Shown: in pieces, positions 7,589 through 10,920 of the stretch | How positions within the stretch are numbered: the stretch's first letter is position 1 | Layout of the letters: each line of letters opens with the position of its first letter | From: a bacterium | GTDB taxonomy: Bacteria; UBA8248; JACPRG01; G963555815 | Direction of reading: 5' to 3' | DNA length: 64,000 bases | Assembly: GCA_965261595.1 (NCBI GenBank) | Contig: CBDHDG010000004.1 | Coordinates: 736,001 to 800,000 of the forward strand | The notes under the pieces: generated by a model | What the model saw: the letters and a program-made list of their open reading frames with translations, nothing else | Database searches by the model: none | Told to the model about the DNA's origin: nothing | Translations under genes and position numbers: made by a program

Positions 7589-9874
7589 TCAAGCGTTTTT
7601 TCCTCGGAGGGCGTCGAGCACCCGCTCCGCCGTCACGGGAAGCTCCCTGATCTGGACGCCGATGGCGTCGAACACGGCGTTGGCGATGGCCGGCGCCGTC
7701 GGGACGATCCCCGGCTCGCCCACCCCTTTCGCGCCGTAAGGTCCCGTCGGCTCGCCCTCTTCCACGAGCAGCGCGGCGATCTCCGGCGTGTCCATCGAGG
7801 TGGGAATTTCGTATTGGGCGAAATCGGCGGTCAGCATCCTGCCCGTTCCGGCTTCGAAGACCAGCTCCTCCATCGTTCCATAGCCGATCCCCTGGGCGAC
7901 CCCGCCCTCGACCTGCCCCTCGACGACGAGGGGGTTCAGGGCCCGGCCCACGTCGTGGGCGGCGACGAAACGCACGAGCTCGACCTCGCCCGTCTCCGGG
8001 TCCACCTCGACCTCGGCGAACTGGGCGCCGAAGGGCGGCGCGTTGGTGGGCGGCGTATAGTCGGCGCGGCCGACGATCTCATGCGGCGCGTCGCCGTATT
8101 GGGCGTCGAAGGCCACCGCGCCCACGCTCAGCGTCTTGCCCGGCGTCGATTTCACGGTGACCTCGCCGTCCACGATGTCGAGGTCGTCCACCGAGGCCTC
8201 GAGCATCTTGGCGGCGTGCTCCAGGACCTGCTGCCGCGCGTCCGCCGCGGCCAGCTTCGCCGCCATCCCCCCCACGTAGGCCTGGCGCGTCGCGTACGCC
8301 CCGTTGTCGTAGGGAGAAAGGTCGGTGTCGATGACGCGGTTGGTCTCGACATCGTCCAGCGAAACCCCGAACGCCTCGGCCGCCACCTGGGCGGTCGTCG
8401 TCTCGATCCCCTGGCCGGTGTCGGCGACGCCCATGCTCAGTTGAAGACCCCCGTCCTCGAGAACCCGGGCCGTGGCCGAGGAAGCCTCCAGGGCGAACGG
8501 GGCCGCGCCGCTGGCGATGGTAAAGACGGCCGCGCCGACGCCGCGCAGCTTCCCGTTGCGCCCGCCATTCGCCGACCGCTTCTCTTTCCAGCCGATGGCC
8601 TCCGCCCCCGCGTCGATGCACTTGCGCAGCTCGCAGGACTCGATGGTCCACTGCGTGGCCGGATGCACGTCCCCCGATCGGATGTGGTTCTTCCGGCGCA
8701 GGTCCAGCGGGTCCATCCCGATCTCCCGGGCCAAGTGGTCCATGTGCAGCTCGGAGGCGTACGTCCCCTGCGGAACGCCGTAGCCCCGGAAGGCCCCGGC
8801 GATGGGAAGGTTCGTATAGACCGTCCGGCCGTCGAAGAGAAAGTTCGGCGAGCGGTAGAGCCCCACCCACATCGCGCCCAAGTAGGCGGTGACGATGGGT
8901 CCGTGGCTGCTGAACGCGCCCGTGTTCGCGACGGCGTGAAGGGAGCGCGCCGTGATGACGCCGTCCTTCGTCACGCCCGTTTTCGATGTCATCACGTAGG
9001 GGTGCCGGTGCCGGGTGGCGCTGAACGTCTCTTCCCGGGTGTATTCGAGCTTGACGGGGCGGTGTCCCGCCGCTTTCGACAGCAGGGCGCAAAGCGGCTC
9101 CTCCTGCATGTCCTGCTTGCACCCGAACCCGCCGCCGACGATGGGCTTGAACACCCGAATCTTCCGCACGGGGACGCCCAGGGCATCGTGCATCAGCCGG
9201 CGGAGGGTGAAGGGAATCTGCGTCGAGGACCACACGTTCAACTTGCCGGTCGCCTCGTAGTGGCAGATCGCCACGACGGGCTCCAGCATGGAGTGCGCCT
9301 GGCCGGGGACCTCGCACCGGGTCTCGATGACGAAATCGGCCTCGGCGAACCCCTTCTCGACGTCCCCATCCTCCATGCGGATGACGGCCACCGTGTTCTT
9401 GCCGTGCTCAAGATCCTCCTGGATGTCGACGGCGTCTTCCGCCACGCTGTCCACCGGGTCGAAGCACGCGGGGAGGATCTCATACTCGACCTCGATGAGG
9501 TCGATGGCCTCCCGGGCGAGGTCATTCGTATCCGCGGCGACGGCCGCGATCTTGTCGCCGACGTACCGCACCTTGTGGTCCAGGATGAACTGGTCGTCGG
9601 GCGTGGGGTCCGGGGGGGGGTGGCCCGCCGTGGTGAACTTGTTCCGCGGGACGTCGTCCGGCGTGATGACCGCGCGCACGCCGGGAAGCGCCAGCGCCTT
9701 GGACGCGTCCACCTTCAGAATCCGGGCGTGGGCGTGCGGGCTCCGCAGGATCTTCGCGTGGAGCATCCCCGGAAAGGTCATGTCCACGGTGTAAATCCCC
9801 GTGCCGGCGGCCTTGTCGGCGGCGTCCTTCAACGGCAATCCGTGACCGACGACTTTCAAAGGCTCAATGCCCAT
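7589..9874 (-). CDS. Xanthine dehydrogenase family molybdopterin-binding subunit
   Basis: LRSPHAHA, VGGGFGCK, AFRGYGVPQ, GQVEGGVAQGIG, GAKGVGE; start after AGGAGG. Confidence 0.95.
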   Translation of the reverse strand: MGIEPLKVVGHGLPLKDAADKAAGTGIYTVDMTFPGMLHAKILRSPHAHARILKVDASKALALPGVRAVITPDDVPRNKFTTAGHPPPDPTPDDQFILDHKVRYVGDKIAAVAADTNDLAREAIDLIEVEYEILPACFDPVDSVAEDAVDIQEDLEHGKNTVAVIRMEDGDVEKGFAEADFVIETRCEVPGQAHSMLEPVVAICHYEATGKLNVWSSTQIPFTLRRLMHDALGVPVRKIRVFKPIVGGGFGCKQDMQEEPLCALLSKAAGHRPVKLEYTREETFSATRHRHPYVMTSKTGVTKDGVITARSLHAVANTGAFSSHGPIVTAYLGAMWVGLYRSPNFLFDGRTVYTNLPIAGAFRGYGVPQGTYASELHMDHLAREIGMDPLDLRRKNHIRSGDVHPATQWTIESCELRKCIDAGAEAIGWKEKRSANGGRNGKLRGVGAAVFTIASGAAPFALEASSATARVLEDGGLQLSMGVADTGQGIETTTAQVAAEAFGVSLDDVETNRVIDTDLSPYDNGAYATRQAYVGGMAAKLAAADARQQVLEHAAKMLEASVDDLDIVDGEVTVKSTPGKTLSVGAVAFDAQYGDAPHEIVGRADYTPPTNAPPFGAQFAEVEVDPETGEVELVRFVAAHDVGRALNPLVVEGQVEGGVAQGIGYGTMEELVFEAGTGRMLTADFAQYEIPTSMDTPEIAALLVEEGEPTGPYGAKGVGEPGIVPTAPAIANAVFDAIGVQIRELPVTAERVLDALRGKNA

Positions 9875-9920
9875 GCCTATCAACCTCCTGTTGTGGCTGG
9901 GACACTTACGCGCCAGCCAA

Positions 9921-10442
9921 GGGCGCTTGCGCGCCGGCCAAGCTGCGGATGGAGGGGGTCGTGCTCATGACAACCTCTCTGGCGCACGGCCTTCCGAGAG
10001 TCCAACGAGCAGGTCCGCGAGTGCGGAAAGCCGACACCGAGTTTCTGGCCCCGCCGCCGGGGCGGGCGCGGGTCGGTTGACCCTCCAGCCCGCCTTCCAA
10101 TGTCGGCCAAGATGGCCGCCCTACCCTTACGATGGCCGAATGCCGGAGCGTTCCGGAGGAAGGTGGGCATTTGAACAAAGCAAGAAACCACCGCTGGCCA
10201 CAAACGGATTCTTTAGCCAAACCAACACCCCGCCCAGAAAGGCGAAACCAAGGGTCAACCGATCCGCGGCTTAGCCGCTGAAAGTTTTTCTGGGGGTTAC
10301 CAACCCCTGGGAGGGGGAACGTGCGAGGTCAAGTTTTCGCACTTGCGTGCTTGGGCGCATCAATCCACGGATTGTGTGCGCCGACCAGGGTGCGATAAAG
10401 ACGATCACCTTCATCCGCAGCTTGGCCGGCGCGCAAGCGCCC
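9921..10442. repeat. ~520-bp non-coding element bounded by 31-bp perfect (42-bp imperfect) inverted repeats with nested inner inverted repeats
   Basis: GGGCGCTTGCGCGCCGGCCAAGCTGCGGATG at 9921-9951 is the exact reverse complement of 10412-10442; inner pairs 10017-10029/10334-10346, 10067-10084/10251-10268, ~10088-10098/~10159-10169. Confidence 0.85.
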
Positions 10443-10446
10443 CGGG

Positions 10447-10920
10447 TCAATACTTTCCTTCCGCGACGGCCTCGATGGCGTCGATGATCTTCACGTATCC
10501 GGTGCACCGGCACAGGTTGCCCGAGATCCCCACCTTGATCTCCTGGCGCGTAGGCTTCGGGTATTCCTCCAAAAAAGCCTCCGCCGCGCAAAGCATCCCG
10601 GGCGTGCAAAATCCGCACTGGATCGCGCCCAACTCGATGAACGCCTCCTGAAGCGGATGAAGGGAATCCACGCTCCCCATCCCCTTCACCGTGCGCAGGG
10701 CCTTCCCGTCCGCCTGGACCGCGAGCATGCAGCACGTGTTCTCCGCCTGGCCGTCCACCACCACCACGCAAGCCCCGCAGTCCCCCTTCTCGCAACCGTT
10801 CTTCACCTCCGTCGCGCCCAGCTCGTAACGAAGCGCGTTCAGAAGAGACAGGTTCGTCGGAAAACTACGCTCCATCTCCTCGCCGTTCAACGTGAATTTC
10901 ACCGTCCGCTCTTTGTCCAT
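10447..10920 (-). CDS. XDH-family (2Fe-2S) small subunit
   Basis: GCEKGDCGAC, QCGFCTPG, GNLCRCTGY; start MDKERT after GAAAGGG. Confidence 0.95.
   Translation of the reverse strand: MDKERTVKFTLNGEEMERSFPTNLSLLNALRYELGATEVKNGCEKGDCGACVVVVDGQAENTCCMLAVQADGKALRTVKGMGSVDSLHPLQEAFIELGAIQCGFCTPGMLCAAEAFLEEYPKPTRQEIKVGISGNLCRCTGYVKIIDAIEAVAEGKY

Follow-up and report, generated by a model that had tools for sequence, protein, structure and literature searches.

The 522-nt element that lies between two subunit genes of a xanthine-dehydrogenase-family operon is quite probably a mosaic, in which at least three dispersed families of hairpin repeats were stacked one after another at an intergenic site. 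The perfect 31-bp repeats at its ends belong to two copies of one family, called A, which lie in opposite orientation and are missing at this site in the closest relative. The element occupies positions 9921–10442 of the window, that is, of the whole 64,000-nt stretch that was analysed, and the mosaic behaves like a BIME or REPIN that was built in place. An earlier note, made from the sequence alone, had taken these positions for either a large structured ncRNA or a new non-autonomous mobile element of unrecognised family. The second idea survives in spirit for the parts and falls for the whole as one element. The first does not survive, as the orthologous site lacks both arms, and the arms belong to different subfamilies and lie on opposite strands. 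The element is real and ordinary in kind; the kind is known, and it is the family that seems to be undescribed.

The element between the FeS- and Mo-subunit genes

The flanking genes encode, by Pfam, Mo-cofactor, 2Fe-2S and FAD subunits (Table 1). The right boundary of the element, 10442, lies 4 nt from the stop codon of the FeS-subunit gene (10447–10449), and the left boundary, 9921, lies 32 nt from the ribosome site of the Mo-subunit gene (9884–9889), distances which agree with those given earlier. The left boundary given earlier is off, as positions 9900–9920 are a truncated extra head of A. Sequence alignment shows that the outer arms form a perfect 31-bp inverted repeat (9921–9951/10412–10442), and this pairing reaches 67 nt at 81% identity, with collinearity over approximately 126 nt, all as expected from the earlier description of collinear arms. 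Compared arm against arm, identity is 77% over 70 nt. The inner inverted repeat of 18 nt (10067–10084/10251–10268) and the small hairpins listed earlier are present in the sequence as well. There is no target-site duplication of 3–11 nt at either left boundary (9900 or 9921), in keeping with the original observation.

Table 1. Host genes and repeat modules at the junction (positions in the window)
Feature	Positions	Strand	Remarks
Downstream host gene, xanthine-dehydrogenase-family Mo-cofactor subunit	7589–9874	-	PF02738, PF20256, PF01315
Truncated tandem copy of A head	9900–9920	+	18/21 nt match head
A repeat copy 1, 126 nt; in order, hairpin of the head, conserved blocks in a spacer of fixed length, the head again in degenerate inverted form, small end hairpin	9921–10046	+	Profile match 9921–10045, E 2.5e-24; not at orthologous site L163
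Decayed GTAG-type REP, loop holding 18-nt C insert (10067–10084)	10056–10094	+	Same REP-with-insert form elsewhere
GTAG-tagged REP, inverted partner of first REP (doublet)	10102–10125	-	74–75 genome copies; type flanks RAYT genes
Core repeat: hairpin E (10136–10174), linker, hairpin H (10239–10278), A/T run (10281), hairpin K (10293–10316)	10133–10316	+	Profile match 10133–10310, E 1e-24
Second, inverted C insert in hairpin H loop	10251–10268		Within core repeat; not in H of G001 orthologue L163
A repeat copy 2, in place of the core's plain G-run/C-run end hairpin	10317–10442	-	Profile match 10442–10319, E 5e-22; L163 has plain end hairpin
Upstream host gene, 2Fe-2S subunit	10447–10920	-	PF01799, PF00111

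Of the words sampled, 91–99% are present in each of 14 runs from six studies, among the matches listed (the source may be one of these runs), and both junctions, namely Mo gene/left arm and right arm/FeS gene, are spanned by RNA-library contigs. The element is, therefore, not an assembly artefact. A BLAST search of its own genome returned 251 matches, partial except for one full-length copy; the element is single as a whole and not unique in its parts. When folded, both strands are far more stable than shuffled controls: the + strand has a fold of -289 kcal/mol (z -8.7) and the - strand one of -279 kcal/mol (z -7.4), with none of 100 shuffles equally stable for either.

Dispersed repeat families that make up the parts

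The source genome (G000) contains 53 A heads, to which a profile search added none. Other genomes gave 42 head matches in G001, 180 in G003, 19 in G006, one in G002 and none in G004, and reversed controls gave none. Overall, five of the 41 genomes searched have matches, four of them in the same family and one through a weak 28-nt match. The repeat family was placed in Nitrospinota, with 77 of 79 loci coming from two related assemblies and the other two being unrelated chance matches. The same intergenic forms are seen in 23 of the 24 metagenome loci viewed around the match. Searches of plasmids and phages gave no match, and viral scans were blank except for one unrelated match.

Each A unit consists of a head hairpin and a spacer whose conserved blocks and variable stretches always sum to the same length, followed by the head in degenerate, inverted form and by a small end hairpin. 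It is, as a REPIN is, an inverted hairpin doublet with a length-conserved spacer, which forms a head-to-tail stem. Full-length units of 125–129 nt account for 57 of the 171 heads examined, and many copies in G000 end after approximately 70 nt. At other sites, tandem heads are found 24–142 nt apart, and positions 9900–9920 are one such stutter.

The core repeat has 94 profile matches in the genome, in which hairpins E, H and K and a G-run/C-run end hairpin follow each other in constant order. The G-run/T-run half of this end hairpin precedes 83 of 123 full-length A matches (duplicates included). A core lies within 330 nt of 15 of the 53 G000 heads, with 13 of these at its left end and two at its right, and the FeS/Mo-subunit locus has A at both core ends. 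The remaining modules are shorter. A pattern search found 74–75 copies of the GTAG-type REP in G000, and within the element a 5' GTAG-type tag on a short palindrome is present only at 10102–10125 (- strand). The C motif has 39 matches genome-wide as opposed to none in the control. It accounts for the inner 18-nt inverted repeat, since insert C is present twice, in the loop of a REP and in that of H. The REP with C in its loop occurs at three to five further places, as judged with two strict patterns, and also adjoins the RAYT gene L158. Two other patterns carry no weight: pattern F was equally frequent in its control and is uninformative, and the A/T-run pattern lacks a valid control, since reversing it yields a stretch of the end hairpin.

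The 46 A matches and 94 core matches all fall outside genes as predicted by a crude caller, which covered 73% of the genome. With the same crude calls, A is oriented with its co-directional genes in 13 cases and against them in 15, and the core leans towards the opposite orientation (39 versus 23, p 0.056). Also with these calls, the core is enriched in convergent gaps (30/94 versus 401/2738) and depleted in divergent ones (2/94 versus 602/2738). Like REP and BIME sequences, the composite is high-copy, extragenic and strain-variable.

Several arrangements elsewhere combine these modules in other ways. At C5:620629–621105 of G000, there are three tandem units of approximately 233–243 nt, each made of an A head and a different stuttered repeat. 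Four loci are intermediates of the A/end-hairpin composite. L199 and L202 have an end hairpin with only a small inner hairpin, and at L239 and L045 a complete second end hairpin follows A, as if half of the target had been duplicated. Separately, A was considered as a coding remnant. The G000 copies give a plausible peptide with synonymous-looking changes, yet the genome has no parent gene, the frame is shifted by compensating indels in the G003 and G006 copies, the entropy does not vary with a period of three bases, and, whichever frame is read, at least 11 of 43 copies contain stops. This candidate was rejected.

Arms, strands and orthologous sites

The two arms are different subfamilies of the dispersed A repeat and are not each other's closest copies. 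Their closest relatives elsewhere are 91% and 86% identical, and the partner arm ranks only 32nd and 12th among 52 copies. A shared run of at least 31 perfect bases is nevertheless found in just 12 of the 1378 pairs of G000 heads. The rarity of this identity makes local homogenisation of the two heads possible, as opposed to fully independent arrival.

The earlier note had proposed that nearly all non-Watson–Crick pairs are G–U on the + strand, and that structure is selected in that strand. The bias is present in the blocks from which it was read, where there are approximately six + strand G–T pairs, and it vanishes over the whole arms: of the mismatches in the 130-column alignment, 12 are G–T on +, 10 are G–T on - and 24 are transversions (p 0.83). 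In the minimum-energy folds, 17 G–U pairs are on + and 27 on -. Family-wide, the core hairpins keep Watson–Crick pairing by double changes, and their G–T/A–C counts are 4/3 for H, 3/3 for E and 0/0 for the end hairpin; hairpin S has an A–C excess due to one fixed position. Selection on the + strand is, accordingly, not borne out by the arms or by the core hairpins. Within A, the head-to-tail stem read on the head-first strand has 69 G–T versus 26 A–C cells, a count taken from 93 related, non-independent copies and few columns against a background ratio of approximately 1.2. This hints that A alone may fold on one strand. Such an excess cannot support one folded + strand molecule, as the two A copies lie on opposite strands. 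Both sides have changed in one of the 16 consensus pairs of A and the covariation term is approximately zero.

These data bear on the possibility that the element is a selected structured RNA, either a + strand antisense ncRNA or a cis element of the operon mRNA. The fold is very stable, pieces of the element are present in RNA-library contigs from three studies, and the G–T excess inside A falls, if mildly, on one strand. Against this, the element is not conserved even within the genus, its arms have no strand bias, the paired positions of A have a covariation term near zero, A shows no preference for either orientation to genes, and no promoter-like site was found in the element. A comparison with Rfam gave no family, only two matches of approximately 20 bits where the cut-offs are 75–80. 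We regard a selected RNA as extremely unlikely. In the RNA-library contigs, the depth of the element is low, like that of its neighbours, and these contigs lack strand and level and may be DNA. The - strand has three terminator-like matches, all with weak tails.

Comparison of orthologous sites supports the mosaic. In G001, which belongs to the same genus, the orthologue (L163) has a flanking gene that is 96% identical. It contains the core, whose end hairpin is plain, and is without either A copy or the C insert of H. The corresponding site in G004, of the same family (L166), is a gap of approximately 45 nt with neither core nor A. In G003, the gene order differs at the junction. The G006 junction is occupied by an unrelated insertion (L170:360–1480), which by eye is IS630-like, and the gap between the FeS and Mo genes has therefore been filled independently at least twice.

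More generally, of 20 sites at which the same-genus relative has A, 12 were occupied in G000 (L046 and L130 being moved by eye from the absent to the occupied class), five lacked A, one was unusable and two had no orthologue. At L140, L034 and L027, the end hairpin in G000 is plain, and the A of the relative begins within its loop. A is present or absent at orthologous sites in both directions, and at the FeS/Mo junction the single orthologue fits a gain in G000 and a loss in G001 equally.

That the orthologue holds the core without either arm is also why a reading as one element with terminal inverted repeats fails. In its most explicit form, the whole 522 nt would be one MITE, with the A heads as its terminal inverted repeats, moved as a unit by a DDE or TIRYT transposase. 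The perfect 31-bp ends, rare as they are among head pairs, favour such a unit, and there are further A pairs that face inward (L096, L027 and one of 1290 bp on C7 of G000). These other pairs, however, surround unrelated cores or host genes. Moreover, the genome has no second copy of the 522-nt unit, target-site duplication is missing, there is no clean empty site as the orthologue already has the core, and IS1595 ends (found for eight of 20 loci) and TIRYT ends are unlike A. The MITE is judged very improbable.

Spread of the parts, candidate enzymes and known systems

The modular make-up and copy numbers of the parts, the one insertion position in the end-hairpin loop, the lack of target duplication, the fixed head with ragged tails and the head-to-tail stutters are all observed. 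Single-strand copying by a cut-and-rejoin enzyme that reads hairpins would fit the fixed head hairpin, the ragged tails, the stutters in tandem, the entry into hairpin loops and the missing duplication. For the mosaic, the order of events may have been as follows. An empty gap of approximately 45 nt, like that of G004, would have taken up the core repeat, and the REP and C modules would then have entered the core. One A copy would next have replaced the right end hairpin of the core, and another, with its stuttered extra head, would have arrived at the left. The parts would spread by single-stranded DNA copying, through an enzyme of the HUH/RAYT kind that recognises hairpins, cuts and rejoins, and acts in trans. 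A single-stranded step, as had been suggested for the element, is the likeliest route for its parts, and the selection of structure on the + strand that went with it is not supported.

Precedent comes from E. coli, where TnpA-REP cuts and rejoins BIMEs in vitro, as stated in the available part of PMC3333891. The same kind of mechanism has been proposed for the growth of BIMEs and for hybrid BIMEs (PMC2817692, available part) and for REPIN clusters (PMC3116915, likewise).

For the REP pair, the enzyme is likely to be the RAYT at L022. The REP type of the doublet flanks the RAYT genes L022 (G000) and L158 (G003), both PF01797, and this concerns the REP module only. L022 and L158 are at the same orthologous site. 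More widely, the RAYT genes L022, L023 and L024 in G000 and L156–L161 in G003 and G006 are each bracketed by their own REP type.

For A and the core ends, it is about an even call whether the enzyme is HUH-like. These ends have no GTAG tag, and neither A nor core brackets any of the 12 Y1 loci; nor do the ends of the A unit match the repeats flanking any RAYT among the Y1 loci tested. Longer copies carrying a transposase, RAYT or nuclease gene, which had been proposed as a check, did not appear: among 44 nuclease and transposase loci (Y1, IS110, GxxExxY, DUF559 and GIY-YIG; five to six genomes) and 20 IS1595 loci, none is bracketed by A or core. A search for IS91 was blank everywhere, including the controls, and is hence uninformative. 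Three GIY-YIG loci have a module nearby and, by frame length, look like uvrC. When the 1154 ORFs lying no more than 350 nt from an A or core module were clustered, the 30 largest clusters held only host metabolic genes, and inward-facing A pairs in G006 and G000 bracket no enzyme. One A copy lies downstream of the TIRYT-like gene L021, at a distance of approximately 170 nt, and no other tested transposase or nuclease gene is flanked by A.

The same mosaic could also have arisen without a dedicated enzyme, its modules spreading by gene conversion and template switching among similar hairpin copies. This is possible though doubtful. No partner enzyme was found for A, the stutter junctions have short micro-homologies, and at four of the 12 occupied orthologous sites the A copies are just 73–83% alike, with flanks that are 88–99% alike. 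In addition, the incomplete assembly of G001 contains 42 heads and gave no match to a Y1 transposase. Against this reading, 38 of the 53 G000 heads have no core match within 330 nt, and the fixed head with its ragged tail suggests a defined cut site.

Returning to an enzyme-driven spread, a more specific proposal sees in the A unit an undescribed kind of repeat-homing element, a fixed-length 126-nt doublet that enters one base in the end-hairpin loop of another repeat. It would be rapidly gained, lost and rewritten between close relatives, fold on the head-first strand and be moved by a single-strand enzyme outside RAYT, TIRYT, IS110, IS1595, DUF559, GxxExxY and GIY-YIG. We consider this unlikely. 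If a dedicated enzyme does put A into one hairpin loop, it would be a new site-specific single-strand tool and form another repeat–enzyme pair beside REP–RAYT.

The nearest known system is BIME/REP–RAYT, which, in the available parts of PMC2817692 and PMC3333891, also comprises intergenic palindrome mosaics of alternating orientation that are strain-variable and hybrid, with pairing kept by compensatory changes. The element holds a true GTAG-REP doublet, of a type that flanks a RAYT in the same genome. It differs in that most of its length (A, core ends, E, H and K) is untagged and flanks no RAYT, and in that its modules are nested in each other's loops, whereas BIMEs are described as regular REP–linker strings (PMC2817692, available part). 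The likeness of A to REPINs, as far as PMC3116915 could be consulted, extends from the inverted hairpin doublet, with its spacer conserved more in length than in sequence, to clusters that grow by insertion into or beside existing elements. Unlike a REPIN, A has no cognate RAYT, many of its G000 copies are tail-truncated and it prefers one position in the loop of another repeat. Bacterial MITEs (PMC3184786, available part) resemble the element in size, apparent terminal inverted repeats and the lack of a transposase; the element, however, has no target duplication and no second copy, and its ends are missing in the orthologue.

The TIR repeats of TIRtrons and TIRYTs (PMC3733652; PMC6006769; both in part) are similar in their G-rich ends. 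The motif GGGGWSAS, which this literature names, is present in 26 of 76 core end hairpins, and the genome has TIRYT-like genes. L021:1195–1915 (C6 of G000) is such a Y1 transposase gene, of 222 aa and bounded by short inverted repeats, and L025 is an internally deleted copy of the same type. The difference is that these genes have a repeat family of their own, with 26 matches in G000, some as gene-less hairpin pairs, and that the core end hairpin does not flank them. In the literature searched, which excluded subscription papers, ISfinder and supplements, no description of a palindromic intergenic repeat family from Nitrospinota was found. The neighbouring literature is general work on REP, Ssn (PMC11893778) and MITE (PMC3184786) sequences, as judged from the accessible portions, and for the core end the TIRs listed in PMC3733652, in its figures and supplements, could be relevant.

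RNase III and REP sequences have effects on mRNA. Transcription of the operon would carry the element along in the mRNA (- strand), and its folding there may change the stability of the downstream Mo-subunit message, which would be an incidental effect. A 31-bp perfect duplex between the subunit genes could also uncouple expression of the subunits in this lineage, a putative effect. Otherwise the element matters little, beyond illustrating that hairpin repeats, once stacked, can pass for a large RNA or for a transposon with terminal repeats.

Two further features of the source genome were seen. IS1595-family transposases have 54 matches in G000, many with an identical score, and none in G001 or G004, a pattern that reads as a large recent expansion. 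Contig C1 has identical inverted stretches near both ends (C1:14086 and C1:221841; 700 of 700 nt compared), and a short sequence is repeated near many G000 contig ends; together, these may be a shared terminal repeat or an assembly feature.
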